Positions 2,183-27,798 of a DNA stretch of 64,000 bases are shown one piece after another. The notes beneath the pieces were generated by a model. The model was given only the letters and a program-made list of their open reading frames with translations. It searched no databases and was not told the DNA's origin. The stretch is taken from NCBI GenBank assembly GCA_973895155.1, contig OZ316891.1, positions 10,417,875-10,481,874 on the forward strand. The letters run 5' to 3'. Position 1 is the first letter of the stretch; every line of letters begins with the position of its first letter. A program made the translations under genes and the position numbers. Source of the stretch: Marsupella aquatica (Eukaryota; Plantae; Marchantiophyta).

Positions 2183-2279
2183 GTTCTCTCATGTTGTATC
2201 TATTGATCCAAACTTGTGAAATATTGAGGAAGATTATGATTGGACTATGTTCTTATTTCACAAAGTAATGTCTTTGCAG

Positions 2280-3191
2280 GAACCAAAGGAGAATTTTTTA
2301 CTGAAACATGTTCTGCATAGATTCTCACACAATCCTTCTAGTGGGTTTCTTTTGGACAATAAAATATTGAGCCAACTTGAACCCTGTCAATATTTGGAAG
2401 ATGAAATAATGAAATTTTACCTACAATTAATAACCAAGGAACATGGAGATCTGGCTCACTCAGTAAAAACATTATCCTCTTTTTTTTACCCTTGGCTTGT
2501 TTCAAGGATTGAAACAGAACCAGCTGAGACCTTGTTGGAATCAATTCAAAAGATGCGGAATTATTACAAGCCACCATTTTCCCAAATTGAGGTCATTCTC
2601 ATGCCAATTCACATGAACATGCACTGGAGTCTGGTTGTAATATGTTTGGATCAGATTGAATCTTCGATCAAAATGTATCATCTAGACTCTCTTGCCGGTC
2701 TACACTCAACCCATGTAATTGGATCAATACTGAGCAGGTATGTATATATTCTATTACATTTTTTCCATTTTAAATTATTTATGTGGCATATAAATATAAA
2801 CACTTTGGACTAAGAACTTTGAATGATAATTTGCATATATTTTACAATGGAATGGGAATTATTTTTTGGAAAAGTTCCAATGGGAGTTGTGGAGATTTAC
2901 AATCCAATGGTAAGGATTTGAAAAGTTATTTCAACTTTTAATTAGTTGAATTATTAAACACTTTGGACTAACTTTAAGATTCTTTCTCAGGTACCTCAAC
3001 AACCAAACAATTCAGATTGTGGTCTATTTGTTCTTCAAAATATGGACGAAATCAGAATTCAATGGCATATTACACAATGCCTTGATGCACAGTCTTTATT
3101 TACCAAAAAATGGTACAACTCTAAAAGAGCATGTAACCTTAGAAAATTCATTCGAGATCAAATTCTAAAATTGATGCATGTACCTGTTTAA
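2280..3191 (+). CDS. Ulp1/SENP-family (peptidase C48) SUMO protease domain, transposon cargo, intron-containing
   Basis: YLEDEIMKFY...LSSFFY...ILMPIHMNMHWSLVVI...YHLDSL, then after introns (acceptor at 2990) VPQQPNNSDCGLFVL. The His/Asp/Gln/Cys catalytic set is complete. Confidence 0.88.
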
Positions 3192-3229: not shown

Positions 3230-6200
3230 CTCTAATTAGCAGACTCTATAATCTTTTTAGTTTTTGCTGCTATCTGATTAGTACTTAAAAGCGCAAAGTT
3301 GTATGCATACACCGCTGTTGATGATAAAACTAGTTCATCTTGGAGAAGTTGATTAGATATATTATCTTTCTCTGGAAAATATTTCCCATCAATAGCAGAC
3401 TCAGCACTTGCCTCAGTTGTGTACTATGTGATTTTGATTCTCTCAAGAATGTCTGCAGTTCTTGTCAAAATCTTTGACACCTTTGCCATCCAAAACAACT
3501 TGCCTTCTGGATCCTTGTGTGCCGCTACACATATCATGGACCACTTATTGTTAACTTACATATCTCTGAAATCTCCAAATTCAGCTTGCTTTCGTCGAGG
3601 TCCGGAGTACATAATTCTCTGTGGTCCAGCAACTTTGTCAACCAAAGTTGGATCAACACCTTTTTTAACAAGTTCATTTCTCACCCTTCGAAGTGTTGCA
3701 CCTTGATTTTGTTGCGGCCAAACCCACTCAAATAACCACTCACCTTCCTCTAGGTGGTTTTTGATAATATCTTTTTGTTTCTCAAAAAAACTCATCCATC
3801 AAAGTTTGTCTTCATTGTCAAAGTAATTGAAACCTTCCTGAATAGCTTTTTCATATTTCACCAGAGTAGTTAACGCACCATCTATATTGGAAGAATCATG
3901 GACATCATCCCTCTCAACACCTTTTGCTGACTTCAGTGACATTTGTGCATCAACCCACATTCTTGAAGTTGGAATGTAATTGACAAACGCCACTGCATCT
4001 CCCCAATCCTGGGTCGTGGAAAGATGTTTCCCGTGAAATGTTGTCTCTTCGTTTCTATCCTCCATGACTCGTTTGAATCTGAATTGCCTTTGAAAAGTTA
4101 TGAGATTGAGATCTCTCAAGACTCTACCTGAGACTCCCTTCTCATTTGGCTGGTCGGTTCCATTGACAAATTTTTGAAAATCGCTACTTCATCCACAAAT
4201 ATGATCAAAGCTTCAGGTGAATATGCTTGTCGAATAATATCCTCAAGAGTCTCCAAGCGAAATGCTTTGTGCTTGTTTAACCTAGATGAAAATTTACTAA
4301 ACATCTGATCTATCTGGTCATGTGTATGACCGACCAACAAGAAACCCACTTTAATCTTGTCAAAAATCTTCAAATCTACTAACATGTGAAGATAAGCCAT
4401 CAAAAATTTATTCTTGTTTTCCCTAGTGGTATTATCTAATTGAAGATATAACACTCTTGGTAATGTCCCATCCCATGTATTCAATACATTTTGAATAACA
4501 TGTATGGTCAAGTTTGCATCATTATGGATATTGGGATATGTCAAATATACTTTTGCTGCAAGGTTCCTGTTGAAGATGAGACAACCTACAACATGAATTG
4601 GAATGAAATATTTTTCATCCATATTCTTCGGACAACGAAGAAAATGTGGTAGCTTTGTTTTCTTTTGATCCATACCATCTATACAAATACCCAAATACTT
4701 GTTGGGTTCATCATAGCATTTTTTACGATGCTTGGCTAACTTCATCCTTTCCAATGATTGTACTTTTTGATGCTCCATAAGGGCATTAATGTACTTTCTT
4801 GAAATGATACAATAACAATGAATCAAAAATCAATAACTAAGGATAACCTTTGACAAATATTGAAGTACATGTCATCAAATTAAAGTTGAAGGTTGTAGTT
4901 AGTGGTGCTTATTTTTATCCTCTTCAGTTGTTGCTTTGTCCCAAAGAACCTTGAATTCAGTACAAGGACCATAAGTAGAAAATCGACTCCTTTTAGGTAT
5001 TCGTACATTTGGAAACTTTTTTTTCCAAACACGCAAAAAATAAGAATATGTAACTTGTTGTTCTTCTCGCAACATTGTTTCAGCTTCAAAGATTCCATGT
5101 ATATATCTCTTGCTTTGTCCAATTGTCTGGCAAGTGATGAATCTCTTTATGGGGAAGACTATCCATATTGTTTTGGAAAAAATCTTTCAACCATTCCACC
5201 AGGTTTAGAAATGAAGGTGAGTCTTCCTTACAAAAGGTATCTCGTTCAATCCTTGTAAACATGTTTGCATGGATTGTTGTCAATCTATTATTACCTAAAG
5301 AATATAGTTTCTTGAATCCTCCTCTACATATAGGTTGTCCATTTACACTATATCCACGAGAAGTACTACTACTGTTCATGATACAACCTCGTAGCAAAAT
5401 ATTTTTCTGCAAGTGTTTAAGACCAAAATAATACTTGCGTTGTTTTGAGCATTCCTCTAGACCCAGAGAGCTCAAGCAAAACTTGTCACAACAGGGATAC
5501 TTAAAAATATCTTTAATTTTGCATTTTTTTAGATTTGCAATGGTAAGTCTATCTTTTCTAATCATCTGATCTCTGATTTTTTTGGTGGGTCTTGTCACCT
5601 CTACTCTATCTTGAATAGTGTCAGGAGAACCTACCCCCTCACTATTTTCTAGTGAATTAAAATTCAAAACAAGAAGATCTTCTGTAGAGTTGTTTCCACT
5701 CTCCACATTTTCTGTAACTGTTTCATGAACAATCTCACATCCCAGGATCTCTTCAACAACATTTGAGGTTATAGCAGTCTCTCTGTCATTTGCAGCCACA
5801 TCTGATCTCTCTTCAGAGTCTTTTGAAAATGTAATAGGTGTTCGGAGATTTCTAGTTTGAAATCTTCTAATGATATTCACATCTTCAGTCGCAGTACCGC
5901 CCACTTGTCTCTGAGACTGTAATCCCAACCTAGGTGATTCTTCTTGACTTGAGGGCTCATCTTGACCATTGAATAATCTTTGGACAAGTTTCAATTTAGC
6001 ATGTACCCTTGAATTTTTGGGCCCTCTCTCCGGCAGCTCACTTCGCAACAATCTCCGAGGAATTTTTTGGACACTAGATCTCTTCCCTCTTTCGTTCTGC
6101 ACTTGCCGTCCAATGGAAGATCCAAAAACCTCACACTGCATCCTCGCCAAAGGGCTTCGAAGCCCCATGTTGTTAGTTTGACCATTCGGTGAAATAACCG

Positions 6201-7075
6201 ATGGGAATACCGATTGGGATCCATGGATCCCAACTTGTATTTGTCCTTCGGGACTTCGAAGTGAAAACTTTCCCACTTGCTGTTCTGCGTCATGACTTGG
6301 CAATTTTCCGTTGCGCAATACGAACTGGGATCCACGTATCCCATTTTGCATTCCACCATCGGAACTCGGGTTGGAAGTCCGCAAGATTGGTGACTCGGGC
6401 ACAGGATTCTGCAAAATACCATGAGGGAATACTAAGGAATCCATGAGGGGATACTAAGGAATCGTATTTGACCCATGGAATTTGGTACTGAAGGAGACGA
6501 AATAGGCAATTTGCATTCACCGTTTCTCAACATTCGAATAGGTAATACCAAGTTGGTATTCGACCCACCAAATTTGGCTCTGAGGCTGTCCCTCCCTGCA
6601 ATTCCGGCACATTCGGACTCCTCATTTGCTCAAACTGTGATTGAACACTGGACACAGCTATCTTCACTCCCGGAGAACAAGACATTGGAAAAACCAACAA
6701 AGATCTTCAGGCGGGCCTACATGGTAACGTTGTTCTTGGCATTAAAAACCGGGGCCTTAGTCTTCGAAGATCTATTGGGGTTCGCGGAGAACCAGGTGTC
6801 TCTGTCGTAGGAACTACATTAGGGTTCTTTACAAGTAGACGTCGTTTAAGAGGTTTACTTGGAGAGACATAGTATGAAATCGGAGCACCCATAACACTCC
6901 TACAAGACTCTGAATCGGACTCTGATTTCTCAGATTCTGAGGAAAATGAAATCTCTGGCACTACTCTCTGTGAGGCTGGTAATTCATTCATCAAACGAGA
7001 TGGAATAAATTTTTGAACAACATCTGGCAAAGATGCATCTGAACTATAAATTGATTCATCACTTGAAGACGCCAT
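3230..7075 (-). pseudogene. DUF7869-type (Sola-like) RNase H-fold DDD/E transposase, frameshifted
   Basis: ORF pieces 6707-7075, 5086-6444, 4116-4826, 3799-4119 and 3556-3795. Cys-rich N-terminal region CCDKFC...ICRGGFKKLYSLG. Core motifs ICIDGMDQ, LQLDNTTRENKN and FLLVGHTHDQIDQMFS. Superfamily assignment is from memory. Confidence 0.75.
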
Positions 7076-7855
7076 AGAGAATCAAACAAGGGTTGTATAG
7101 GAGTACGTATTCCTATCCAACAGAGATACTTCAGATTACAATATTCTATGAAAACAACTACTCAATAGTGAACGAATCTCAAAGTAATCACGAGAAATGA
7201 AGATGAAAAACAAATGCAAGCTCTTCCTTTTATAGTTTTCGGGGGCATTGTACACGTGGCATTCCCTGATTGGTCCGTACGAGGGTTTTTTCAAGTGAGA
7301 GTCTGTCTTTTCCAGGACTGCTGAAATTTAAATTGTAGATTTTCGAGGAAGTCGCCATGGATCCGAGTTGGTCTTCAAACTGGAATATCAAGGTATGCGA
7401 TGCAAAAACTTCAAAATGTAGAAGTTGAATACTAGATGGGATCCATGGATCCCATCTGGTATTCATCCTCCTATTTTCCCGATGAGTTTTTGGACTTGCG
7501 AAAAAAATGGGATCCATGGATCTCAGTTGGTATTCATGTCGAAAGATCTCCTGATGCAAAGTTACAGGTGGAAAACATTGAGGTTGAATACGAGAGTGGA
7601 TACTTGGATCCTGTCTCGTATTCATCATGCGTTATGGGCTAAAAAAATTCCGAACATGTCGTCGGGTTAACTTAACTAACTGTGTGAGTCGACTGTAGTT
7701 CGCGGTTAGTTTTTCGCAGTTTTCCGGTTTACCATAGTTAAAAATTCAAATATTTTTAACCCAAGGTTAAATGGAAGCGTCAAGAGAATGATTTGGTGCG
7801 GTTTTTGTCCATGTTCAATAGTTGAATCCGAAATGGGATACGCCGTATCCCATTT
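6214..7855. repeat. Dispersed palindrome family with core GGGATCCATGGATCCC
   Basis: 6214-6233 (perfect 20 bp), 6326-6343, about 7354-7364 (partial), 7426-7465 (40 bp, 1 mismatch), 7508-7525, 7585-7624, 7831-7855. Confidence 0.9.
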
Positions 7856-8154
7856 TCAGTTTGCCATTTTGAAGGCGAAAATGAAATCTTGTGTTTTCTT
7901 CATTTTGTTTGACTCTTGGATTTAGCTTTTAGAGGATCACGTGAAAAGCATTGTTTTTCTAGGTTTTGGAATTTGCCCTTTTTTTAGATGAAGTGTATCA
8001 GAATTCTGGATTGTAACAATTCTTTGTTTTTGTGTCGATAGTATCTCGATTTGAAATCCGATGTTGGATGCAATTTTGGATTCATCCTCAAAATAACATT
8101 TTTGATCTTAATTTTAGTGATTTTTTGCCATTTTTTGCAAAATTGAAAACACAC

Positions 8155-10938
8155 TTCTCGTTTGGTGGTCATACTTCTCGTTTGGTCCGTCACTGTGTTT
8201 GATGTGTCCATACCAGAGAGATTCACCACTCTTGTCACAGGATCATTAGAATTAGAGAGAATGGAGGCAAAGTCAGTTTTGTTTAGATTTTTCCTTTTCA
8301 AACCACGAGTATTTGGTGTGGTTATGAGAACTGTGTCATGCCGATGGGAGTCTTGTGGAGAGACAGTCCCAGTTGCATGTCCCTTTCTCTTCATTGACTT
8401 GGTCACGATATCTCCGTTAAGGGGAGTACTTCTTTCCAAATCAAAGTCCGCCGCATTGGAAAGAAGCATGTTGGTCGCATCTTCAAATAACCTCGGCGAA
8501 CCTGCTTGATCGGCGGAATGGAACGCCAATTCCCATATAGTCGGTCCCTTTCCTATGTTCAACCCTTTTTTATATGCACTATATCCCGCAACTTGAGACA
8601 GGGCTCGGTTTTGGTCAACTTTGCATGCTTCAAAAAGACCAACTTTTTTCTTTGTAGCCCAGGCTTTCATAGACGCATGCCTTGATTCTGACCCTGTACA
8701 ATTGGGAATCAAGGCACCTTCTGCGCTTTTGCTCTGCCATAGTCCGAATGCAATAATCAGTACTAGCATTGTATTACTAGCGCCCGACGCTGGCACCGAC
8801 AAGTATTTATAACATATGTGAAATACAATTGCAATTATGATTTTGGAACTTTGTGGACATGTTGGACTCAAATACGAGAAAATCATACGGTCAGCGTCTG
8901 GCGCTAATATAAAGTTGATGGAAATGAAAGACAAGAGAGGAGATGGATGTCATACCACTCGAATAAAATTGCCCCACTGGCGCCATTGAATAACCCACCA
9001 GGATATCCAGCTTTGTAGCATCATGAGCTTTCCAGGGACACAGTTTCCTGATTGCCACCAAACCACAATCTCTCAGGACACGCGATACGCTACCACAAAT
9101 GTTGGAGCGTTTCTTAGTTTCTCCCAAAGTCTCCGATGTTCCGATTGACATTCTTCAAGTACTCCTTCCTTGGAATGCCGATGGAAAGATTGATAAAAGT
9201 GAAATGCATCAGAGCGTTCCCTCTCCGGGTCTGGGTGTGCACCAAAAAAAACATTCCGCACAGCATTCCATCCAGCTTGTGCATTGTCCGCCATAAACCC
9301 TTGGATGACAACCTCCTATAATCCATTCTCCTTGCAAACCTCAATCATAACTCTCCAAGCCTTTTCGAAAGACTCAGTGTCTTCACCTTTCAACTCGCAT
9401 GTGAAAATTGTACATAGTGCACGGAAGTTATGGTCGTAGACATGCGCGCTAAAAGTCAACCAATCGGTTGTGATACGGTGCATCACATCAAAACTGACCC
9501 AGGCTCCTTTGAGTCTTCCACCAGGTTGCATTTGTCTCAAAAGATCCACACCGGAACCGTGACCCTTCATGGTCATTTTAAAGATGTGAGGCCTGTCGTC
9601 TTGACATCCCTGACCCCGGAGCAATACCTCTGGAGAAACGATAGGTTAATCCTCTTCTGCATTGGCGAGAGAAAATCTAGTTCACCCCGCCCCTTTTGGT
9701 CTATCCTAACGCTCTGACAAAGAGATGCAAACTTTTGGGGAGTGGAAAGTACCATCAGAGACTTCCATATTTCAGTTTCTTTGATATCAACCATGTCGTC
9801 AACATGTTTGCAGAGAGCTTTCACTATGGACCCTGTAGCAGAATTCAAGATCCCAGCTGGTTTTGCGAGAGGATTGGCTTCATGATTTTTTTAATTAAAT
9901 CCTCAGCCATCTTCTCCGCACTCCTACAGAAGGTTTTTCTACCTGGATGGATATGATCACCTATATGAATCGCCAAGCGGGATATATGACTACATGTTTC
10001 CGCATCAAGTAATACTTGCGGGTACATATAGAACAAACGGGCAGGCAGTCTTTGACACAAAAAGGAATCTGATCACAATAATGACATACAACACCGCCCT
10101 CTTTGATAAAAGATCTGACAGCATACGGACCACTAAGCTTTGGAGTACCGTGCCATGCCTTAGCATTTGCCTTCTTTTTCCTTTGGAAGTACTCGTAGGA
10201 CTTGTTCCGACATTCAATGAATCCCGTATAGGTAACCTTACCGAATTGCCAAAGTTTTTTTGGCTGAACATTCGCGGTAGTTGGAAATATGCATGTCCAA
10301 ATGTAGCAATCTTTGGCACGGTCCATGTCCCTAAGCCTAGAGCCTTTAGAGAGCATCTTGTCAATTGGTGGCAATTCAAACATGACGTTCCCATTATACT
10401 TAGTTGGCAGACAAGAGACTTGCTCATGTTTGAAATCACCCGCTGATATGAACCTTGATAACTCGCTATGACCAGTGGATTTGAGTAACGTATCCATCGC
10501 ACTCCACCGATACATGATCTCCAACTGGTTGGAGCTTCCTGGAGTCTCACCTTTAACGATAGCATATTGCGGGACTTTCATTTTCAACGTAGGACTTGGA
10601 GTGTGATCTCCATCTTCACTAGAAGAAATCTCGACAACATCAAATGGAACTTGGGGGACACTAGACGGTCCTTCATGTTATCTTACTCAAAGTGAGTACA
10701 AAATCCCCGCATATAGATGCCAAAACCGTTCACCATCATCCACATTGAATGTTGCTGCATCTTTGATGTCATCACTGGTTTTGAGCTCTCGAACAATGGC
10801 CTCAATATCATTCATCTTCAAATCAAATCTCCTGCAAAGGTGTCTCTCCCAAACCTGCTTGTAGGTGTCTTCCACAGGGACGGGGATGGTCACAATATCC
10901 CCAGTCTCGAATCGGGATAGAACGATGGACCGAGACAT
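8155..10938 (-). pseudogene. Mutator-like (MULE) transposase with N-terminal WRKY/GCM1-like Zn-binding domain, frameshifted
   Basis: CHYC..CVKDCPARLFY...RLAIHIGDHIHP (GCM/FLYWCH-like). WVSFDVMHR..W.TFSAHVYD. MADNAQAGWNAVRNVF...RSDAFHFYQSFHRH (DxxH in place of CxxH). WISWW. NCTGSESRHASMK. Intron at about 8734-8955. Confidence 0.78.
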
Positions 10939-11900
10939 TGCAATCGAAAACAAATAACAAGGGCTGTAATGTTTCGAGGAAGAAAAGTCTATGGTAATAT
11001 GGATCTTGTATCAGTCAAACCTGGGAACTTCATGTAAACACATCCGTTTGTATAAGACATAAACCATAGTCGACATAGGATCCGTTGGCGCCATAAATGA
11101 ATTTTGTCATTTTTCCCCGATAAGTCCGGATGTCAGACGCATACAGAATGCCAAAAAAGACACCACAAAAATCTTTAACAGACTCTAAGATATTGTATAG
11201 TTGAAACAATTTGAGTAGCGCCTGGCGCTAACTAAAATACCTCAAACATAATAGGCCCCAAATCTCGATATTCCATACTAGCGCTTGGCGCTAGTATACG
11301 AAAAACCCTCCAGATATCCATCAATACTATGAAATAATTGGATTTAAATGATCAATGAAAATGTCAATTCTTTTAGAACTATGGATGAAAAATACTCGTT
11401 ATCACTAGCGTCGGGCGCTAGTATAGGATACAAGTAATGTTTCCCAAAAACCATGAAAACAATACACATTTCTTTAAATATGGGGTTGTTTTGACAAAAT
11501 TTATTTATTGGAGCCACCATTTCAGACCTATTCTATAGCTGATGTTTTTACTAGCGCCGGGCGCTGCCATGACAAACATCCCAATTATCTACTTCAAGGA
11601 AAGGTATTTATAATAGCGCCCGATGCTAGTATTTCGTGTGAGGGAGGAAACGGTCATAACGGGAACATTTAACGGTAACTTCTGAGTTCCGTGTGTGTTA
11701 CCCCTCTTCTACCGCTTGATTTAGCTAATTCAGATCTCCGTATACAGACGTTGGAATCTGCCAAACTTACGAGCTTCTCCCTTTAATCGAAGAGTTCCGC
11801 TGAACTGCATCCTCCTTCTAGAATATATTACACGTTGAGAGTTGATGAGAGTTCCATAATTTCATTGTACGATAGTTTGTACGCTTCTGGAAGGAAGACG

Positions 11901-14900
11901 ATGGAGGTATTCCCCTCTTCATCCAGAGGGTATAGTGTTGTTCTTGACCAAGACCGAGCTTATTCTGAATCCTCACAGTCTTTGTTTACTGGTTCAGTTT
12001 ATACACGTCATGTAACTCGTTCCACAAAGTTGCTGCCTCCTACTTCTATTAGCGTTGTTTTGGTTCCTAAATCTCTGCGTAGAAAGATGGAGACCCTCGA
12101 CACGATTGCGATCCAAGATGTTTTGGACTGTGCACTTACGGAGACTGATCTCATCTCCAAACATGTCATGTGTTTTGGAAAGGATTCTCATGGATTTGAC
12201 AAGGAGCCGCCTCGAATCCCTCTATGCCAATTGGTTCACATGGAGGTGGTTTGTACTTTGCAGAAAGATAGCTCTTCCATCGAGAAGCTGAAAGACTCGT
12301 TTTGCAGTATGGGTTACAATTCATCCATAGGAATGCGTTTCTATGTGCAACCAACGAATGAAAATGGAATTGTTCTGACCTGTACCCAGGAGATTCGTGA
12401 GTCATGGGATCCAATTTGGCAATTGGAGAACGAGAAGTTTGAGGCCTGCTGAATGCGAGGCTGACCCAGATTTTCTCGTGTTGAAGGATAAGATGTTCTC
12501 TGTCTTCGATGGAAATCACAGGCTGTACTCATGGACGCTTGTTATCGAGGAGAACCCTGACAATCCAAAATACCATCCTCGAGTGCTCTGCACAATATTT
12601 AAGGGAGACAAGGGATCTCTTATTGAAATTGAGGCAACTATGCACACCGTGAATCAGTAAGTTCCCGTTCTTTTCTGATACCTTCTTTGAATCTTGCGAG
12701 TGTTCTATTTAAGAGCGCTCGGCGCTGGTTATAGATAAATTGTACTTTGACTCTAACTCGCTGCTTCTCTTTGTGTAGGCTTGGCCAAGCCGTTGTTGAG
12801 CCATCCTGGATCCTCGATGCAGATAGAATTAAACGCATGACCTTGAGTATTACAATAAACTGATTGACCCGACTAATTTCAAGAAGTTTGAGAGCATTCG
12901 GCTAAAGACTCGGAAGGGGTCGTGGTATACGAAGAAGATGCCACAAGAAGCTCTTGTTTACATTCTATGTGAGAATAAGATAAAGTCCTATTCGCACAAA
13001 TTCAAGCTTGACATGGAGGCAGCCAAGGCTCAAGGGAGTTCCTGGTTGGTGGACGAGATTTCCAAACGCCATGCGACCATGATGAAGGATGCAACCAAAG
13101 ACTGGGCAGTGAAATCCTCAAAAATTACACCCTTGTTAAGTCCTGAATTTGAAGATTTTCTTAGTACATGTGCAGAAATGTATGCTGTCACAGAGAGAAA
13201 CAAGAGAGAGAAGAAGCCTGACGCCGTTGTATGTACAATGGACCGCGCCCGATTGTTCACTGCTGTTTCTGCCCTAGACCCAAAGTTGCAAAGCACCCTA
13301 CTTGTGGCACATTGCAATCCTGAGTTGCGGAGACAGTTTTTCCACCCGGCAAGTGTTAACAACGACCCAGTCAAACAATGGTGTCATACTTGGATCACTT
13401 GGAATAGTGTAGAGGGAATTGCTGTCGGCATGTTACATTCATGTCTGCGTGAAGTAGAGCAAACGATGCTCGCGACTAGATTAGAAGAGTGGAATTGTGG
13501 TTTGTTTGATGATCTCGTTCAGTTTGTTACCAATGAATTCAAGAAATATGGTGATTCTATGAAGAGTAAGTTCTTTCACACTATGTGGCCTTCAAAGTAT
13601 CCAGACAAAGAAGACTATACCCAGAAAAACCAGAAGCGGGCTAAAAGGTATCTTTACAGGTTCTACATGCACATGGAGGTAACCAAACCTGATTACTTTT
13701 GGGCATATCCTGCAGCTTTCATGAAGTGGATTACAATAAGTGAGGATGACGCCATAGCTGATTTGTACTCCATGTACCTAGCGGAGGGCATATTTCCTCC
13801 GAGACCTATGACAGAATGGGAGAGAACTCACTGCCCCTGGTATCTAGATACAGATAGATGGGATTCTCCTTTTGATCAAAGGGAGAAAGATGCATTCCAT
13901 AAGCTTTCAAAGTCCCACCTACCAGCAAAAGTTGTGTCCAACATGAAGCAGGACCTGCTCGATGATGTAGACAAGTTTGCCACTGACTTGCAAAGTATCT
14001 ATGAAACGACTATTGTTCATGTGGACCGAAGTCGCAAACCTCATGCGAAAGCAAAAGCGGAGTTAGTAGCACCAAGCGAGTCAACAAAATCTGGGAGGAA
14101 AAGTGAGTATAGTGTTCCATAGTTTGGCCAGCGCCTGGCGCTGGCTTGAACTGTCATGCAAATCCACATTTCTTTCTACATTCTTAGGCCATTGTAGAAA
14201 CCTAAGTGATTTGCATTTGGTTAGCGCCTGGCGCTAGTTTGTTTGAAAACTCGGATTTACTTGTTCTAACTATGACCTATTGATAATTTAGGAGGGAGGA
14301 AGTCTAATACAGCGGGAATAGGAGATGCTAAAATGGATGCTACACCTGAAGTTTCTGAGGCAAACACCGGAGCCCGATCGGACCCCATTACTCCTGTCGA
14401 CAAGGGGAAGGTAATAGTTTCGGTCGACGCCACAAGTACCAGGAAGAAACAAACAAGAGCTATCAAAGGTGGACCTTCTTCAAGGGAGAGTGTTGTAGCA
14501 TCTGGTGTCCAACCTGAAGTTGCAAACTTCAAAACTAGAGTGTCTCGTCATGCCATGAGACAAGCATATCCGAATTTTTTTACTCGACTTTCAACAAGGG
14601 GGAAAAACCTGAATGGGTTAGTAATGTGGAGAAGTGGGGGAAGGATCTCGTTAAGTCGGGATATAAAGAGAAGGGTGTTGTGCGGGGAGGAAAAGAAAGA
14701 TAGTTTGGAATGGATGCGGGTTTCATTTATCTACCGACCGGGTTCAAACCAACGATCATAGATAAGAAGGTTCCTAAATGGAACACTCCAGATCACTCCA
14801 TGGCTAGATCTTTTTTCAAGTCCATGGATCCATTTCTATCAGATGATGGATTCCTTGCAATTCTACACAATGGGGAGTATGATCCCATGTCTCAAGTCAT

Positions 14901-16071
14901 TGCTGCATGTCAGGAGTCGAGAAAATTTCAGTGCATATGCATGCATAATGTTGTAATGTCTGTCCCGATGTACGCGGCAAAGATAGACCGTCAGGTAATT
15001 ATCTACTCTTAACTATATCACGTTTTGAGTTATAACTCATTTAACCTGGAGTTTCCAACTGACACTTGGGATTGCTTTCCGCAGATGTTTACCCTCAGGT
15101 TGGACATATTTGGTCGAATTAATGGGAAATGTAAAATTCCCAAAGACCCTAAATTCCGTCCACTATCCATCAGTGAGGACCCCTCGGTCACCAATTTGAT
15201 CGGACTCCTTTCTCTCAAATCTGATCCATTCCTGGAAATGGAGTTTTCTGGAAATGCTCGCCTATCTATCGGGTTTATGCAATCTGTCATCAAGCTTGTC
15301 ACCCGACCTCGTGATATTTTTATGGATTGGACCGCTGGGGCTGGAAGCTCCTTCACAGCTGGAGACTTCTCCGGGAGGTTTGTGCTCGGGATAGAACATA
15401 TATAGAAAAGAATTTATTGAAACCGCTTCGAAGGTTTTCATGGATTTGTTGTCTCCCAAAGAGATTGCGGTTTTACCTCCACCTGTTCCTATTGCCGACA
15501 GGAAGAAGCAAGATAAGCTTCGGTCAGTACTCAATTTTGATTCTGATGATGAGTCCAGTGAAGGTGGAGGTGGAGAGGAACAAGGTACAGGGGACTCGGA
15601 GGAGGAAAAAGAAGAACCTTGTGGATCTCCAGATGAAACCGATAGTGATGACTCTTTCGAGTAATGTTCATAAACTTGTAAGCTTCTTTCTCCATTCCCG
15701 TCAATTTATAACATTTCTGTGTTGTTTTGGAGAAAGGCACCTAACTTTCTGGATTTCGTTTCATCAGGTCAGAGTGGAATGCAAGGAGACGTTTCAAACT
15801 GTGGAGGAGGGTTGCTAGACACAACATAGAAACTCCAGAAAAACCTTTTGTTCTTCCCTCCTATGCAGAGAAAGCCACAAGGAAAGCCGAGAGTATAAGG
15901 ACGCTTTGCTGGGAAAATAAAGGTCTTCGGTTACAAAGGGGTGTTGAAAGGAAGTTCATTAAACATCCTTACGTGGATGATTTCTCCCGCAACCAGTACG
16001 TAGATGATGAGGCCGTATCCACGGACAAATCTGAGAGTACAGATTCTGGTTCCGAATCAGAATTTGCATAA
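11901..16071 (+). pseudogene. Multi-exon gene: N-terminal ParB/Srx-like domain, helical middle region, degenerate beta-class amino-DNA-methyltransferase domain, acidic tail
   Basis: RIPLCQL..MEVV.TLQ...IEKLKDSF..MGY...FYV and FSVFDGNHRL (DGNHR at 12508-12522). Motif-IV-like DAGFIYLPTG (about 14713-14742). IKLVTRPRDIFMDWTAGAGSSFTAGDFSGRFVLGIE (motif I at about 15325-15345). Introns at about 12657-12778, 14103-14291, 14994-15084 and 15661-15768. Several frameshifts, e.g. about 12450 and 15400. Confidence 0.72.
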
Positions 16072-16474
16072 TCGTGACACGTATTGAGGAATTTAGGGAG
16101 AAATCTTTTACCAGCGCCTAGCGCTAGTACCAACTTGTATTCAAATCCTCTCATTGGATCCTTATAAATTAATGTCTCATGACTTGTGTTTTTTACAAGC
16201 GCGAGGCGCTCGCCAAATGGTGATTCATAAAGCGAATATTTCCAGCTCTTATTTGTGTAACACGGCCGTTTGGTCTTTGTGGTGTCCTACCAACGGTCAT
16301 CATAATGAGACAAATAATAGGCAATAGATAGTGTAATATACGTTTCGGATACCAACGGCCATTTCATTTAGGTCCGTTAGTTTGCCAAAAAAACTCACAT
16401 CGATTGTATTCAGACGACATTTTTGGATCTCTAGGATGACATATTTGGATCTCTTGTTCACGATAGTTTTCAAG

Positions 16475-16560
16475 GACGACACTTTTCGCGGACGACAAGT
16501 TTTCCGACCGACGACTATTTTGGGACCGACGACCATTTTCTTAGACGACACTTTTCCCTC
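16475..16560. repeat. Short tandem array of GACGAC(N)TTTT units (about 16-20 bp, 5 copies)
   Basis: gacgacacttttc, gacgacaagttttc, gacgactattttg, gacgaccattttc, gacgacacttttc. Confidence 0.7.
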
Positions 16561-16688
16561 ACTTTGATTCTCGCGGTCGATAGTTTTTGTGCCCGCGACC
16601 ATTTGAGGACCTTTTGCGGGAGATATAGTTCAAGTGTTTCACGGGAGATATTTATCGCGGATGACATCTATCGTACCCACGACCGTTT

Positions 16689-17231
16689 GTGGACCTTTTT
16701 GGACCTTTTGCGAACAATTTTCACATTTTTTTAGAGGGTAACTTGACACTTGATCTGGCTCTATTCAACATGGACAGAAACGGTGAGCTCATGGATTGGG
16801 AGGCAGCGTTCCTCCCTTCTCGTGTGCGTCCGGAAGAGAGCCATTTCAGTTCTTTTGAGTCCCAGATGGAGACTGAAGCTACTGAAACCTCTACTTTCCA
16901 GAATCGTCATGCTCTACCGTATGATGAGGCTATTAGTCCTGGAGAAAAGAACATCCCGTGGATCGTCAATTCTCCTCCGCTCCCATTTGCAAATAGGTTC
17001 TCGTCTCATCAAGTTGTTCCTGTTGATGGTGTACTGCCAATCGACAGGAGAGTTCAAGAAATGTTTGGGCGAGTTGACTTTAAGGACAGTAATATTCCCA
17101 ATGAAGGTTTTACAAGGGCAGTGCGTCAGAGTCCTTCTGAGAGATACATTCAATTGTGTGGTCTTGGATTCAAGAAAAATTGGAGGAGAGAAGCGGTAGG
17201 AGTGGAGGATGATTGCAACTCTGAAAGCTAG
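16689..17231 (+). CDS. Orphan ORF inside the Mutator-like element, function unknown
   Basis: 180-codon open frame. No motif recognised. Confidence 0.3.
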   Translation: MDLFGPFANNFHIFLEGNLTLDLALFNMDRNGELMDWEAAFLPSRVRPEESHFSSFESQMETEATETSTFQNRHALPYDEAISPGEKNIPWIVNSPPLPFANRFSSHQVVPVDGVLPIDRRVQEMFGRVDFKDSNIPNEGFTRAVRQSPSERYIQLCGLGFKKNWRREAVGVEDDCNSES

Positions 17232-17890
17232 ATACAATCACTTATTGCTTGTTCCTCCGGTTTGTCACGAAGAACGGCATCACATTGTTCAGTTTGGTGA
17301 TCACTTTAAGCTAGCATCGAGCACTGCTTAATCTCTTTCGATGTTTCTGGATGGAGTCGTCTTTGGCTTAGTTTTTAGGGTTTTTCCCGGTTGTTGTCTT
17401 CAGGAATTCCATAGTTTTTCCTGCAGTTGTTGGCTAGCGCCGAGTGCTGCTTTTGTTTTACTGGCAATCCTCAGACGGGGTTGACCATGCCTTCTGCATA
17501 TCGGATTTCCACACCTGCACTTGTTAACTTATAAGTGCATTTTTTGGACCTGCGCCGAACGCGTTTTGTATTTTGCGACTATATATGACAGTTTTATTTT
17601 CCCCCTGCGCATTTTGACATATATTGGTCTCAAATTTTGTTTATCTCAATTGTGAGACGGTTTTATTTGTTGTAAACTACATGATTCCATTTAGTCCGAT
17701 TTCCTTTGACTCAAATTTGACCGTCTTGATTTCTATACCAGTAGTTTGAAATGCATATTTTGTCCCCTTTTTTGGTGATCAATGTTCACTGCTAGCCAAA
17801 CACTGTTCATTGGTAATAGTTTCTTTGGGCTGATAATAGTAACTGTTTGCTGTTACTGTTATCTGTTTGCTGTCGTTTGTAAATTTCCCC

Positions 17891-19375
17891 CATCCGGCCT
17901 CTCTTTGTGAAAAACATCTTCTTGGTTTCACCTTCAATGTCTGCAGGTGAGAAAGTTTAGCCAAATGTTCCATTCAAGTGGAACGGCTTTCCACGCGCAT
18001 CATTCTTTTTTATATTGATGCCTACTGGAATTTATAAGTAATCTTGGTTCATTAGGTTCAATTTCCCATGAAACGATGGGAATATCTTAGGACTTCAAAA
18101 TTTCAAAATTCAAGGCTAATCAAATCTGACCCAGGCATTGAATTGAATCAGACCATAGTTGCACGAATGCTTAACAATTTGCAAGAGAACTAGCATGGCT
18201 GAATTGATGTTGGTCGGCATATCAGTACTCTGTACTAAATCCTAATAAGCAACTGCATCGCTCACATTCTTATTTATGGATGCAAATGGGCTATTTTGGT
18301 ATTGTTGATACCTGCACCCACAGTGTCAAATTGTGTGAAAGTGGGGCCAAATGATTGGCCCGTTTTTGAACCCTGGTAGAGCTTCCCATCCGTATGGTAC
18401 CCATAACTATTGGGCACCCATCCTGTCGCGTTGTAGAAAGTGAACTTCTCATCGGAGAATCCTATGGTGGCACTTCCTAAACGTGTTGCACTCAGTCCTG
18501 CGAGGTAATTCACAGTGACCTCAAAATAGTAAAGCCCTTTTAGGGGGACTGGGTGGTCAGCCTGAACTGCCACTACATCATCGCGCGCCTATGCAATAAG
18601 CAAACCTCTTCATGTTAACATGGCAATATCGATCGCGTCTGATTGCGTCCAAAGAGCTGGGCAACTTAGGTTCCTCTACTTTGACTCCTTTACATCCCTG
18701 AAGACACATAATGATGAAGCCAATCTTTGACTGATGCTACTTTCATATTGCCACCTTGCCCACCAGAACTGGCCTCAACAAGTAAGGTAGAGAAGTCTGG
18801 ACGAAACCCCTTAATGCTATCAAGCTAGAGCCTAGAAGCCTGGTCCCAGATCCGTATTGTGTGAAGTGAGCAATTAAGAGTCGCACTGGCCACCATGGGA
18901 TAAAATATTTGCTACTACTTGAATGGAAGGAGGAATGGATGCTGGTCCAAATTGGGGGAAGAGAACTGGGCTTGACAAAGCCTTTCTTGAAACATGACAA
19001 CCGACTGCATCTTAATTGGTAGTCGTTGTGAAGAAAAAATCCTCATCTTGGACTTGAAATTGCAAGGTAGGCAAGAGAAGCTAATATATTCTCTACTGAG
19101 AAAAGTCCTTTCCAATTTGGGTCAAAAAGAACTGTCAAGGCTGATATGAGAGGTTGCGACTCTAGCTTCCCACCCAATCAAAACACAAGAACATTCTCAG
19201 TCATTTATTGAAAGGGTGGCATGAATGATGCCATTGTAGGTCTTGGACTCTGGAAGTTGATGGTTTGTCGATGCAATTTTTTGGTGAGTAGGTGTGAGTA
19301 AGTTCAGTTCTTGAATTCATGTCCCTTCTAGTCATTTATCCTGGAGGGTTCTCTTATCTGTTTAGTGCATCACCA
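17891..19375 (-). pseudogene. Copy A of the MFL1-carrier/SPRY chimeric segment (RanBP9/10-type SPRY), truncated
   Basis: AVQADHPVPLKGLYYFEVTV...IGFS...GWVPNSYGYHTDGKLY.GS...FGPTFT..DTVGAGIN. Near-identical to the reverse complement of 32853-34340. Confidence 0.8.
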
Positions 19376-20283
19376 GAATATTCTTTAATATATACCTCGA
19401 TATATTGAAAATTTACTTTATTAATATTGAAAATAGAGAATATTCTTGGAATATTTTCTTTATAAAATAGGTCTATTTATATTAGGCTAGGATCGCATGT
19501 GGTACCCCAAAATATACACTTAGTTACCCCCGAGCTTAGGAATTCCATGGTAATAGCTAGGCAGCTAGCACTAGCTATATAGACCTAAACGACCACTTGT
19601 CTCCATGTATGATTTCATCGGCATATATATACCTTATTTACGTACATTGTAATTATAACATTCTTTGTTGTTATTTTACTTATATTGCTTCACTCTCCCC
19701 TCTAGCTAGTGATTTGTGTTAAGTCCTACCACTTAACATCAAATGAAAGCTTCCAATTATATTCCTTTGAAGTTGACCCTTCCCATATTGTGTCCCATGT
19801 CCAGACATTTGGAAACTTATCAGAGATACAATGCCTTGCCTTAGAAGAAAAATGTAAACCCCCTCATGCCACTCCTAAGCCCCCACTCTAACAAAACCCA
19901 ATTAGTCCGATTCCCAAAGAAATGAAAACCATATGCCATACAAACACCATCGGGAACATTTTCCATACCAAAACCATCGGATACCATTTCTGTTCCTATC
20001 CGCTTCGTATAAAGATCGCAAACCATTACCGATACTATTTATATCGGAAACCTTTTCGTTCTTTCTAGTATCACAAACAATATGCGAATATCACGATATC
20101 GGATGCCTCCTGCTCCACGGCGATGACACTGTCCGATTGTCTCTGAATCAGAAAATGTCCGATGCAATTCGAATGGTACGATGCATCCGATAGTTTTAGT
20201 GTCGGTAGTACTGTTACCGATGTAGTTAATATGGCAAATATGCGTTGAAGATAGAATCGGAAATGAACGATGTCATGAGTATT

Positions 20284-21788: not shown

Positions 21789-23117
21789 GTATCGAAAAGC
21801 CACTCCGGCGCAAAAAAGAGTCTTGGTAAAAGCCGAAATATGTACGAGTGAAAGGGCTAAAATAAATGAGCCTCTACTGAACAGTCACACAGGAAATTGA
21901 AACGATTGAGCTTCCAATTCAACTTTGCAACACAGTAGACGGAATAGTTTTTGGACTCGTAACACAGTAGACGAAATAGTTTTTGGACTCGTATGTTTCT
22001 GTAGTAGTAGGGATTTAAGATTTATTTGTAGTGGTTTTTCTTACTCCAACTAGTTAAAACAAGTGTGCTCCAAGTCCCTGGGCTGTTGAACAACGATAAC
22101 GGATGTTCCCAAGCCGTACATCATTTAATACTTTTGAGGAACTTCGAGGTATCTTTCGAGGAAAGACTGATTTGTGCAACTCAAGCATTGATGAACAGCC
22201 GGCCGTGCCCTACACTGGAAAGATTTCACCACATCCTCGGCACTTGGATTTCACGTGGTGGTCGCATCAACTGAGTGAATTGATGAGAACACAACCTGTC
22301 CCGTGTTGAAGTCAGAAATCAGGGACTTCTGTTTTGTCGAGCCACTTGGCGAAGGGTTTTGCAGAGAAGGTGCTCTATTGTGAAGCCCGAGTCGTGTCCT
22401 ATCGGTGCCGCACTGGACCAGTGGAATGTCAGCAACACTCTGAAAGCTGTTAACGTGAATCGTATGGCAGACAAGGTATGATGTTCAAAATAAAACATCT
22501 GAGGCATTATTTTATCAGTCGTGTTATCTATCGGCTGATGCAATAGTCGTTTCTTCTAGAGTGCAAGCATAGATTTGAGATTCTCTCCTAACAATTCGAT
22601 TCCTTTCTATAGATTAATGTCGAGGGTGCTTGGGGTTTAATGCAATCATCAAATTGATCAAATCATAAAGGCAATTAGTTGTGCACTCACATTTTTCTGA
22701 ACCTGTCAGAAACACAACGAAAATAATTTGTCTGGACTGAGATTAGTCTTTCACGGTCGGCTTAGACATCTAGGTGTGTATTCTATGTAATAAAATGATA
22801 AGTACATGCCATGAGTCAGAAGTAAAGCAGGACCCTTACTGTTGTGTCCTCTCTTGTCCATCTTATGTTCTTTAGTCAGTGGCTCCTGTTTTGTTCTACG
22901 CTGCTCTTAGGCGCGTCCCGACTAGGGTTTACCCTGCGCTTTTTACATCTTCTTTACACTTTATCCTCCCACAATGGGGTGCCCATCGTCTCCTCCTTTG
23001 ACTACTCACTCATTGTATTTGACCCTGAATCAATACTGGAATTCCATTGTACTTCTGTACTCCAAGAGAGACAATAATCGACAAGATTCCCTGATAGAAA
23101 TCCTCCGCATGACAGGT

Positions 23118-23360
23118 TGTTGGAACTTGTGTACTCTCACAGGTTCCACTTGGTTACGAGTCAGAGAGTTGTTACCTCACCTGGTGCTGTGTTCCGTTGT
23201 CCCTCTGACGACATGTGCTGTGCTAACGGTTGTCTCCTGGTTGTTAGACCTCGGGCCTGCTTCCGGTGCTGGCTTGCCTTCGCCTCCTTCTTCTGGCCCT
23301 ATTTAGTTCTTTACTGCTTCCTCATTTGCAGAGCAGATCACAGTAATCTAGCTTTCAACA
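23118..23360 (+). repeat. 5' LTR
   Basis: TGTTGGAAC...TTTCAACA. Two substitutions seen relative to the 3' LTR. Confidence 0.97.
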
Positions 23361-23372
23361 TGGTATCAGAGC
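23361..23372 (+). promoter_or_regulatory. Primer-binding site (initiator tRNA-Met)
   Basis: TGGTATCAGAGC immediately after the 5' LTR. Confidence 0.95.
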
Positions 23373-23484
23373 ACAAGTCTCTACGCACTCTCTAGATGAG
23401 AAATTAGTGCAAGCTACAGGCTAGTAACCCAGGTCGAAAGTTCCTCGTGGTTAATACTGTTGCGACATTCTCTGTCATCCGACC

Positions 23485-26400
23485 ATGGATATGATGAAGA
23501 TGTTTACTGAGGTAGATAAGCTGGAAGGAGCCAGCAATCATTTAGCATGGACCATCTTTGTGAAGAATCTCCTGAAGCGTGACGATCTGTTCACGGAACT
23601 GAACTTTGGAGTCAAGCCGGATGCCAATGGTCAAGTTCAGGATGGTGGGGCACACCTGACTGAAAGTGAGATCGCAAAGAAGAAAGTGAGGGCCACCTCT
23701 ATTCTTGCAGCTACAGTGAAAGCTCAGTTCTTGCCCACTGTAGATAAGTACTCTGATGACCCAGCTCAATGCTGGGCACATTTCCAACAACGATTCGGTG
23801 GCGACCTATATCAACGCAGACTGATACTGGAAGAGAAGCTACAAACTGTTCGCATGACCGACGGCACCCCTGTTGAGAAATACATCAACACAATCAACAA
23901 CCTCGCTGGCCAACTGGCCAGCATGGATGCTGCCATCGATGACAACAAGCTCATTCACCTTGTGCTCCGTGGACTACCTGCGAGTTGGGGAACCTTTGTC
24001 TCCATCTTCTCTGCTGACCTTGCCCGTACACCACGACCTTCGTACAACAGCCTGCTGGAGCGTATGCAGGCCGAAGAGCTCTGGAAGCTCAATATTCAGT
24101 CACGTTTTGAGCCTACCGAGGAGGCCCTAATTGTGTCTTGGTTCAATCGATCCTCAGGGCGTGGAAGAGGCCGTTTCACCCCCAGACCTGTTGTCAGCTA
24201 TCCTCCTCGGGTCAACTCTTATCCGCGTGCAACCGGTGGACGCGGCATGCGACGCCCTACCTCCTGTAACTATTGTGGCAAGTCTGGACACTGGGAATCC
24301 GACTGTGACCTCAAAAAGGTCGACGAACAAATCTCGCAACTTCAAGTTTGAGCTGCCAATCTCCGACGTTTTCGTCCTCAGGCCAATCTAGCTGAAATAT
24401 TTCATGAAGTCGAAGCTCCGTATGATGAAGAAGAAGAAGCTGACCCGGCCGATGAGAACGACGACTCCGGTGCAGATTTGGAGGCCAATTTCATTGAGAT
24501 CCTCCCTAGCACTAGCACAAACGATTGGATTTTAGATTCAGGCACTAGTACTCACGTCTCTGGAGACAAATATGTTTTCTCTGGTGGCATGCATCACTCC
24601 AGTGGTGCCGGCTCCGTTGCCACCGCCAGTGGCACTAAACTCCCTGTTGTTGGAAGCGGTTCAGTCCATATTGCTCCCAATAAAACCGTCCGCAATGTTT
24701 TGTACGTCCCGGGTATGACACAAAATCTCATGTCCATTGGCAATCTCACTGACGCTGGCCACAATGTCTTCTTCAATTCTCACTCTTGTCTCGTCTTTGA
24801 CAAGGATAACCCTCAGAAGATCTTCCTACGGGGCACCCGAGATCCCAGGAATCACCTGTATCAGCTTCCATGATCTCTTCCCTCGATTTCTCCTCTCTGC
24901 ACCACCGCTCGTCTTCGACCACACTCTCTCGCTCAGCCGGCACCAATGCTTCTTGCTGAATCGTCTCCCATGGAGGACGACATTGACCTCTGGCACATTG
25001 ACCTCTGGCTCCATCACATGTCACATCATAACTTGGCTCATGGCCTACCTTCCATCCCACGAGTTCAACGCTCTTGTGAGACCTGTATTGTGGCCAAACA
25101 CCACCGCGATCGAGTTCCAAAATCATCTGCGACCCGTGCCTCCCGACCACTGGAGCTGATTCATTCTGACCTCTGTGGTCCCCTTCCTGCCTCCACTTCA
25201 CACCGATATATCCTCACTTTCATTGACGATTTTTCACGTTTCACTTGGGTATACTTTCTCTCTCACAAAAGTGAAACCTTCTCTAAGTTTCAGGAATTCA
25301 AGTTACTCGTTGAAAAGCAGTTGTCCATGAAAATCTCTTGCTTACGTTCTGACCGGGGTGGCGAGTACCTTTCCTCTGAATTCCTCACTTTTTGCCGACA
25401 ACACGGGATCCATCGTCAACTCACCGTTGCTCGCACTCCTCATCAAAATGGTGTGGCTGAGCGCAAAAACCGTACTCTCTTGGAAGGTGCCCGTAGTCTT
25501 CTTCTCAGCTCCAACGTGCCAATCAATCTTTGGACAGAAGCAGTTGCCACAGCCAACTACACCCAGAATCGATGTGGCACTCGGGCTCTCAAATTGATGA
25601 CCCCCTTCGAAGCTCTTTGGGGTCAGAAACCACACTTGGATCACCTTCGGATCTTTGGCAGTCTTACCTACGTTCTTCTTCCTCCGCATCTGCGCTCCAA
25701 GCTGGGCGCTAAAGCAATACGCACTGTTTTACTCAGCTACGACGCACAGTCCAAAGCATATCGGTGCTTTGACCCCATTCGTAAACGTATCCTTATTGCC
25801 TCCAACGTCAACATCATTGAAGGTTCCTTTTACGACTTCTCTTCAAATCAAGAAGCTGTCACCAGTCTCTTCTTTCCGTTGCTTACTGATCCTGAGTTTG
25901 GTCCATCGGCCCAAGAGGGGGCAACTGCAGTCGACAACCCTTCAACTGCTGACGGCAATATTGAATATGTGACACCCCCTGACGAGGACACTGAGACTTC
26001 GGCCTGCCCTACGGCTAACTCTTCTCAAACTAGATCTCCACAGATTCCGGCTCCAATTCATGCTGCTCGACACTCCCAACGTGTGAAGCGTCCCCCACCT
26101 TGGCATCAAGACTATGACATGAGTTGGAGGCCTGACCACATGGACACCTTTCTCATTGAATCAGCCAAACCTGAATCAGACGAAATCTCTGAGATTGAAG
26201 CTCTCCGCCACCTCCTGTGGCGTGAAGCCATGCAAGAAGAGTTTGAGGCTCTCATGGCCATGGGTACCTGGGAGCTTGTTCCTCTTCCTGTCGGCAAACG
26301 AGCCCTGTCTGCTAAATGGATCTTCTGGTCTAAACCGGATCTGAATCCTACCCGATTCCGCTTGAAGGCACGCCTGGTGGCTCGGGGTCTTGAGCAAAAA

Positions 26401-27798
26401 TACGGCATTGACTATTATGAGACATTTGCCCCTGTGGTCAAATGGTCCACTCTTCGCACTATCATTGCTCTGGCCGTGGCTCTTGGATGGGAACTGCATC
26501 ACATGGATGTTATAACAGCTTTTCTCAACGGCACCATCTCTGAAGAATTGTACATGCAACAACCTCGTGGCTTTGAAGTCCCTGGACTTGAACACTTGGT
26601 TTGCCGTCTGAAGCGGTCCCTATACGGGCTCAAGCAATCTCCACGGGCCTGGTATGAAGAGATCGACGCTTACCTTCAGCGCAATGGCTGGACCCGGAGC
26701 ATGGCGGACAACAATCTCTACTTTCTCTGCGAAGGTACCTCTATTGTCATTATCATGATTTATGTTGATGATCTCCTAGTGACAGGAAACGACTCTCACA
26801 AAATTGCCGCCGTCAAAGACCAACTCCACCAACAATACAAAATGAAAGATCTCGGACCAGTGCAGAAGTACTTAGGCATCGAATTTCTTCGCACTGATGA
26901 CGGACTTCTTCTTCATCAACATTCCTATTGCCAGAAGCTGGTCTGCGAATTTGGTTTAGCCAATTCTAAACCTGAGTTCATTCCCCTACCAGAAGGGCAT
27001 GTTCTCACTTCTGAGACCAACACACCTCCTGTGGACATCACCGACTACTGCCATGCTGTTGGGAAACTCATTTTCCTCACTCACACCCGTCCCGACATTG
27101 CCTATGCTGTTGGCATCGTTAGTCGCTACATGACCAGGCCTCAACAACGACATTGGGACTCTGTCAAACACATTCTACGCTACCTCAGCCATACCACCGA
27201 TCATGGCATTTACTACTCACGCTCACCTGGAATTTCTCTTGCTGGCTACACCGACGCTGATTTTCTAGGCTGCCCTGAGACTCGCCACTCTATCGGCGCT
27301 TACTGCTTTCAGCTTGCTTCCGGACCCATTTCTTGGTCCAGCAAACAGCAACCCACCGTGTCCGATAGCACCACTGAAGCAGAATATAAAGCTCTTTCTG
27401 AAGGCGCAAAGGAAGGGGTCTACATCCGCCGCTTACTTAACGAGCTTCACATTACCTCCCCTCTTCAGGTGCCTCTTACCTTTTCTGGTGCTTCTATTCA
27501 CTCGGACCTCTCACTGGCCTCTTCCCCTTCCTCTCTCGATCTCCATTTGCACTGCGATAATCAAGGCTCCATTAAGCTTGCTAAAAATCCGGTCTTTCAT
27601 GCTCGCACCAAGCACATCGAGGGCAAGCACCACTTTATTCGTGAGCGGGTGCTAGAGGGGGAAATATCCCTCGCATATGTTCATTCTTCTGAAAACCCGG
27701 CTGATTTATTCACAAAACCTCTCGGGCGACTCAAGTTTGAAAAACACAAATCCTTTATTGGAGTCAACTCGGTTACACAAATATCTGCCGCCACATAA
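23485..27798 (+). pseudogene. Copia gag-pol polyprotein with two in-frame TGA stops
   Basis: Gag with CNYCGKSGHWESDC knuckle; protease WILDSG; integrase IHSDLCGP..LRSDRGGEY..NGVAERKNR; RT YVDDLL; RNase H YTDAD..DNQG. ORFs 23485, 24478 and 24946 share one frame, separated by stops at 24349 and 24871. Confidence 0.95.

Follow-up and report, generated by a model that had tools for sequence, protein, structure and literature searches.

A decayed Mutator-like transposon in a liverwort carries a ParB-like and methyltransferase-like gene and thirteen dispersed palindromes

Introduction

How could a transposon of a land plant single out its own copies? To our knowledge, an action of plant transposons on their own chromatin has been demonstrated for VANC and Spm TnpA-type factors only. 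The question is raised by a ~10-kb Mutator-like element in a 64-kb stretch of the liverwort Marsupella aquatica (contig OZ316891.1; the whole stretch analysed is called the window, and positions are counted from its first letter). In this element, a transposase gene on the minus strand is divergent from a plus-strand accessory gene whose product combines a ParB-like domain with a DNA methyltransferase (MTase)-like domain. The locus has lost its function and belongs to an abundant transposon family. We give about an even chance to the proposal that the accessory protein of this family, a ParB-like domain joined to a pseudo-MTase, binds 13 palindromes dispersed through the element in a VANC-like form of self-recognition.

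Results

A broken transposase gene and a five-exon accessory gene

A preliminary description of the locus had reported a Mutator-like transposase divergent from a spliced gene. Both are present, and the accessory gene is organized into five exons separated by four introns, all with GT-AG ends (Table 1). Both genes are interrupted by stops and frameshifts in the window copy: in addition to the breaks in exons 1 and 2, exon 3 loses its frame near 14555 and runs into a stop at 14701, and exon 4 has a frameshift near 15402. An intact, active copy at this locus is ruled out by these several frame breaks and stops. The indels near 12444 (4 extra bases in exon 1), 14555 and 15402 are missing from other copies, represented by contigs in public runs, and the breaks are therefore not family-wide. 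Between 352 and 5406 contigs per run, from four public runs of three organisms, fell on window positions 7000–19500, most with less than 99% identity; contig depth in the runs does not equal copy number, and the element is clearly an abundant repeat family. A bacterial contaminant is ruled out by the GT-AG introns, the liverwort homologues and the surrounding plant repeats.

Intron 3 (14995–15084) is precisely missing from contigs in two runs, which confirms its borders; these contigs represent either complementary DNA or an intron-less subfamily. Exon 5 displays weak similarity to the tail of the Riccia homologue P0116 (E 0.077). The broken genes, this fifth exon, a third open reading frame (ORF) and the degenerate catalytic motif IV of the MTase-like domain go beyond the preliminary description. 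The third ORF, covered at high depth, gave no Pfam match.

The translated transposase contains, by eye, D...D and DAFH (DxxH) motifs, and an intron at ~8734–8955; its 3′ end was probably removed by a neighbouring element. Compared with Atlas features, the transposase core scored 0.93 to MULE/ZSWIM RNase H clusters, with 10 of the 10 best named matches belonging to one family or clan; PF21056 is carried by the matched clusters, as is PF10551 MULE (37% of members). As no MULE match came from Pfam itself, support for a MULE-type DDE RNase H core is moderate. In Riccia, the gene model of protein P0096 joins a piece 38% identical to the transposase (E 1e-16) to an accessory-protein piece, a weak hint that the two genes may be neighbours there too.

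An initial homologue search with longer proteins returned no match, whole-protein profiles against PDB gave low-complexity matches or none, and the 24 window ORF pieces scanned against Pfam matched no ParB, MTase, MULE or ParA-type family. Exon 2 retrieved 96 proteins at E ≤ 0.001; among the 20 looked up, six were from Riccia sorocarpa and two from Calypogeia fissa. All rows of the Riccia-seeded searches (54/54 and 16/16) were Riccia, and no algal sequence occurred among the named matches of the exon 2 and Riccia-seeded searches. A tblastn search of P0116 against phage genomes gave no match. Four Riccia homologues (P0101, P0116, P0129 and P0134) contain all three regions, that is, the ParB-like, central and MTase-like parts, and in P0101 their order agrees with that of the matching parts of the window. 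In a tree built from 51 of 64 rows, Riccia sequences fall into many short-branched subfamilies, and the window protein groups with Calypogeia P0006 (97/90, long branches).

Table 1. Coordinates of the genes, palindromes and probable right end of the element in the window
Feature	Position	Strand	Basis or location
Mutator-like DDE transposase gene, broken	8198..10938	-	Translation, motifs by eye, Atlas features
Palindromes 1–2 (cores 8779, 8893)	8776..8908		Transposase intron
Palindromes 3–7 (cores 11217, 11280, 11407, 11553, 11615)	11214..11630		Between the divergent genes
Exon 1, ParB/Srx-like domain (PRIPLC, DGNHR, HTVN), frameshift near 12444	11901..12656	+	tblastn with Riccia
Palindrome 8	12711..12729		Accessory intron 1
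Exon 2, helical central region, frame break near 12835	12779..14102	+	Homologue search, alignment, model
Palindromes 9–10 (cores 14130, 14223)	14127..14238		Accessory intron 2; no variation in the cores across related copies
Exon 3, linker of low complexity, then first half of MTase-like domain	14292..14994	+	BLASTP P0149, E 7e-8
Exon 4, second half of MTase-like domain, motif I (DWTAGAG), acidic tail	15085..15660	+	BLASTP P0149, E 9e-8
Exon 5 (probable), C-terminal tail	15768..16071	+	GT-AG intron 15661–15767
Palindromes 11–12	16110..16213		Directly past the stop of the accessory gene
Third ORF, 153 aa from ATG	16770..17231	+	Inside the repeated unit, covered at high depth
Palindrome 13	17433..17451		Member of the 19-bp family
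Right end of element (probable)	17870..17888, likely ~17886		Junction with truncated multi-copy gene

Thirteen palindromes in the non-coding DNA of the element

The preliminary description had counted 13 copies of AGCGC-N3-GCGCT in the element and none elsewhere in the window. Thirteen family members are indeed present, eight of which fit the pattern exactly, and absence elsewhere holds for exact matches, all of which lie at 11217–16210 (0.01 expected in 64 kb). Allowing one mismatch raises the number of matches to 13 (0.34 expected), of which 12 belong to the element and one, at 29469, does not; with two mismatches allowed, 13 lie within the element and eight elsewhere. The sites are better captured by a symmetric profile of ~19 bp with the core AGCGCC-N-GGCGCT and flanks (A/G)C(T/C), which scores the 13 inside sites at 20.5–29.0 bits and the next one, a degenerate copy of the motif at 36808, at 16.1. 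In a leave-one-out analysis, 12 of the 13 sites remained above the best outside site. Beyond these ~19 bp the flanks of the copies, which span 8.7 kb, share little.

Coding sequence occupies ~69% of the element, leaving a non-coding share of 0.31, and all 13 palindromes are located in the latter: the transposase intron holds two, the stretch separating the genes five, the accessory introns three and the downstream DNA three (an assignment made with gene borders 1–2 bases off the final gene model). Such placing is VANC-like, as had been proposed, and there is weak evidence of constraint on the motif among copies. Across the four runs, accessory intron 2 disclosed 25 variant places, none of them in its two 13-bp cores (hypergeometric P 0.019; 16 of 189 circular shifts do equally well, 0.085), which is only suggestive of constraint on the cores.

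A diverged second gene of the ParB-like accessory type is represented by a 5′ fragment at 38477–38950 on the plus strand (tblastn E 7e-6). Another palindrome, TCTCAGAGA-N3-TCTCTGAGA, occurs five times at 36919–37340, 1.1–1.6 kb upstream of this fragment (0.03 expected), a second hint besides the invariant cores of intron 2. Divergent from the fragment is a broken minus-strand gene at 35200–36746 with a NIF/FCP1-like phosphatase domain (PF03031, E 1.2e-8), possibly transposon cargo.

The N-terminal region adopts a predicted ParB/Srx-like fold

The folds anticipated in the preliminary description, ParB/Srx and beta-class MTase, were both confirmed on Riccia homologues through models, Foldseek, VIA and profiles. 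Exon 1 aligns with Riccia proteins at tblastn E values of 1e-22 to 5e-24, and its window piece gives a weak match to a PHROG ParB-like family (E 0.033). The ParB-like domain of Riccia P0075 was modelled at a predicted local distance difference test score (pLDDT) of 79.6, and its best Foldseek rows were Srx and ParB (prob 0.94 and 0.95). In VIA, the domain aligned with Caulobacter ParB over 99 residues (root-mean-square deviation 2.8) with the top 14 rows all ParB-family, at a Z of 7.6, where a value below 8 can reflect an arrangement common to many folds. A Foldseek-independent search of the whole model returned KorB, PadC and pNOB8 ParB (Z 6.1–6.8), amid unrelated rows of similar Z. As modelled on the Riccia homologues, the N-terminal region is of the ParB/Srx fold, and the central region is all-helical.

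Three short boxes are shared among proteins matched by regular expression. The window and 26 of 39 matched proteins carry DGNHR, an arginine-patch motif of the GxxR type; HNLN is present in 35 of 36, and RVR followed by K, N or Q in 24 of 31; the first residue of the RVR box is R in 28 of 31 relatives and C in the window copy. We take RVR, DGNHR and HNLN to be the equivalents of the CTP (cytidine triphosphate)-binding boxes of ParB.

A methyltransferase-like domain with a degenerate motif IV

The C-terminal profile matches M1.HpyAVI (E 1.7e-6), and eight of its 11 matches are DNA amino-methyltransferases; exon 4 of the window alone matches M1.HpyAVI weakly (E 1.1). Foldseek placed the domain with CcrM (E 9e-4) and Atlas with bacterial and phage PF01555 clusters, the best PF01555 score being 25.9 bits, slightly below the cut-off of 26.7. 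The model-based assignment is a beta-class amino-MTase fold in which motif IV precedes motif I. Motif I reads DWTAGAG in the window; among 16 matched relatives, 14 show the DFxGGxG type if DLAGGWG is included.

Motif IV departs from the canonical form. The family has D-x-P-T/S-G, with D in first place in 25 of 27 aligned relatives, the first proline replaced, and T or S at the aromatic position in all 27; these counts come from an unbiased alignment in which nearly all relatives are of one species. The canonical (D/N/S)PP(Y/F/W) occurs in none of the 27 and nowhere in 35 proteins. The window copy reads YLPTG (14728–14742), its Y aligned with the D of the family. In N4CMT, the motif IV tyrosine has been modelled as stacking the target cytosine, according to the available text of that study (PMC10406627). 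A canonical active beta-class MTase was rejected on this motif, and DNA marking is doubtful because all 27 aligned relatives have the degenerate form, which weakens the earlier suggestion that the protein marks chromatin. Judged from these residues, the MTase-like part is more likely a pseudo-enzyme than a normal writer; the D, P and G kept in motif IV may still permit an atypical methyltransferase activity.

Which protein might read the palindromes

In the proposal that we favour, a dimer of the accessory protein would bind the two half-sites of a palindrome, and the conserved RVR, DGNHR and HNLN residues would bind a nucleotide such as CTP. After loading, the protein would travel over the 10 kb of the element in the manner of bacterial ParB, and its C-terminal domain would act as an S-adenosylmethionine- or DNA-binding pseudo-enzyme that shields or flips cytosines without methylating them. 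Self-recognition of this kind would keep the element family transcribable or mobile, the role played by VANC in VANDAL elements, reached here with unrelated parts. A further-reaching version envisages a CTP-gated sliding clamp in the plant nucleus, in which the ParB of a family loads at its own parS-like palindrome, spreads and counters silencing with a pseudo- or atypical MTase, protein and palindrome co-diverging; this we regard as tentative and rather doubtful.

Several observations besides the Z below 8 weigh against our proposal. The fold assignments come from Riccia homologues 21–43% identical to the window pieces, Foldseek gave no ParB match at E ≤ 0.001 for the P0075 domain, and pLDDT drops below 50 over the second half of the MTase model. 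The ParB/Srx fold is also found in proteins that are not CTPases, and no helix-turn-helix was assigned in the central region, the search having covered the 1104-aa model only. The constraint test comprises one intron and two of the 13 sites, gives 0.085 under the stricter control, and involves palindromes that can cross-map. Ten of the 11 core deviations are C>T or G>A, and the window copy is not protected; the bias would fit decay of methylated cytosines (5-methylcytosine, 5mC) in a silenced copy. Specificity is questioned by the DUF7869 element to the left, which has palindromes of its own, TGGGATCC-AT-GGATCCCA, and no detected ParB gene. The 38.5-kb ParB fragment and the palindromes upstream of it may belong to different elements, and two metagenome scans for DNA neighbouring homologues found no locus.

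Among the alternatives, the protein could bind the palindromes and carry an active, atypical amino-MTase that writes N4-methylcytosine (4mC) or N6-methyladenine (6mA) there, blocking host 5mC or marking self. The D, P and G of motif IV are kept together with motif I across subfamilies ~37% identical, the palindrome core contains CC-N-GG, bacterial-type 4mC writers are described as working in Marchantia (10.1101/2021.02.12.428880, available text), and the available text on an Ectocarpus protein proposes just this reading (PMC12477816). Such a writer would nevertheless have to work with the first proline replaced and with the base-stacking aromatic residue kept in 0 of 27 relatives, and DIRS1, as far as the available text reports, already offers a case of N6-MTase domains carried by a transposon and judged inactive (PMC4738411). 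We consider this alternative unlikely.

It is quite unlikely, in our estimate, that the transposase or the product of the third ORF binds the palindromes and that the ParB–MTase gene is cargo with another job. Transposases can activate cognate copies sequence-specifically, according to the accessible part of a recent report (10.64898/2026.08.24.746577), and the palindrome family of the DUF7869 neighbour, where no ParB gene was detected, points the same way. Against this, the palindromes are spread over introns and the divergent promoter and are not clustered at one end, the second ParB-gene fragment has a different palindrome nearby, and searching beyond the element turned up no homologue of the transposase.

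A role as host-factor sites or as RNA or DNA hairpins, unlinked to the proteins of the element, is improbable: the non-coding position and conservation would suit any cis element and palindromes of other kinds mark further repeats in the window, but the motif is confined to the element within 64 kb, and a dimeric protein such as ParB would be expected to favour symmetric sites. That the palindromes are neutral by-products of local duplication, a reading left some room by the weak constraint test (0.085), is highly improbable given flanks that share little beyond ~19 bp, copies spread over 8.7 kb, and CpG-rich cores that stay invariant while the intron varies.

Ends of the element and its neighbourhood

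The extent first given for the element, 8155 to 17767, is probably inexact at both ends. On the left, 32 contigs of one run depart from the window sequence at 8199–8200 into diverse flanks; this point is probably the end of a neighbouring element that cuts the transposase, and position 8155 thus probably lies ~45 bp inside that neighbour. On the right, the end is placed probably near 17886 because similarity to a multi-copy gene, with paralogues at 33–34 kb and 45–46 kb, begins at 17887. No terminal inverted repeat (TIR) and no target duplication of 8–11 bp were found at the element ends, the left end having seemingly been removed by another element; non-TIR MULEs exist, as the available text of one paper describes (PMC6446971).

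The left neighbour, at ~3700–8197 on the minus strand, contains a transposase-like gene of the DUF7869 type (E 2e-46) and probably terminates with CACAGTG at 8197. Farther left, at 2220–3190 on the plus strand, lies an Ulp1 protease gene (PF02902, E 5.5e-14), Ulp1 proteases being common cargo of DNA transposons. The multi-copy gene is represented by three paralogous copies at 17887–19374, 32853–35200 and 44673–46763, SPRY-like by eye and with no Pfam match, the first of them truncated at the right end of the element. A Copia-like long terminal repeat (LTR) retrotransposon occupies 23101–28737, with 260-bp LTRs that are 97% alike. Tandem repeats of ~94 bp around ATCTC...GAGAT palindromes, at 42074–42954 and 44164–44188, are probably another non-autonomous element.

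Discussion

The preliminary description took such a system to be undescribed, a claim that does not stand: a ParB–MTase gene has been reported in Ectocarpus Sola1-1 (PMC12477816) and a ParB gene in Plavaka elements (10.1101/2025.02.11.637652). As far as the available text goes, Sola1-1_Ec32 encodes a 1104-aa protein with ParB-like and N4C/N6A methyltransferase parts on the strand opposite the transposase, and self-binding and self-modification are put forward for it as a proposal only (PMC12477816). Our locus resembles it in the two-domain design, similar length, opposite strand and proposed self-binding role; the likeness is one of architecture, and the carrier differs, being a Sola-1 element in an alga there and a Mutator-like element in a land plant here.

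The portion of the red-algal preprint available proposes that the Plavaka ParB protein binds adjacent inverted repeats and, in Bostrychia, describes ParB–oxygenase and methylase–SET accessory genes with inverted-repeat arrays (10.1101/2025.02.11.637652). The Plavaka PAG2/PAG3 genes share with our element a transposon-borne ParB, inverted repeats as proposed sites and a PF01555 methylase on the element, and the accessory genes are also reported on Chondrus Mutator elements. In that system, ParB is fused to a 2-oxoglutarate oxygenase, the methylase is separate and carries a SET domain, and the repeats are in tandem beside PAG3; our element has a ParB–MTase fusion and scattered sites.

VANDAL elements offer a further parallel: a Mutator-like element with an accessory gene and a family-specific motif in non-coding DNA, VANC binding motifs in introns, intergenic and terminal non-coding DNA (PMC5735166). 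In the accessible text of that work, function is proven and the motifs are 8–9-bp non-palindromic words in same-orientation tandem arrays, unlike the dispersed palindromes found here. Membership of VANC was rejected, and no Pfam family links the accessory protein to VANC.

With the bacterial ParB CTPases and their parS sites (ParABS, Noc, KorB), the accessory protein has in common the predicted ParB/Srx fold, the GxxR-type motif and a candidate palindrome of similar length; it differs in domain insertions, the MTase-like C-terminus, introns, and the absence of an assigned helix-turn-helix and, among scanned ORFs, of ParA. It is similar to the beta-class amino-MTases (CcrM, M1.HpyAVI, rotifer N4CMT and Marchantia DN4MT1) in predicted fold, in the order of motif IV before motif I and in motif I itself, and differs from them in D-x-P-T/S-G in place of DPPY or SPPY, in the fusion to ParB and in being transposon-borne.

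The feature is real, and its architecture is of a known kind that has so far been a proposal in algae only. Our literature search, which lay mostly outside subscription papers, found no such gene in land-plant transposons, no defined site and no experimental test. New here are a Mutator-like carrier in a land plant, a defined and dispersed candidate binding site, a degenerate catalytic motif, and the fragment of another, diverged accessory gene with a palindrome of its own kind nearby. To the algal proposal, the locus adds a precise candidate site, natural full-length proteins of the sequenced liverwort Riccia and the sharp prediction of a pseudo-enzyme. If the proposal is true, a ParB sliding clamp would operate on eukaryotic chromatin, and plant transposons would have a second, independent route to sequence-specific anti-silencing.

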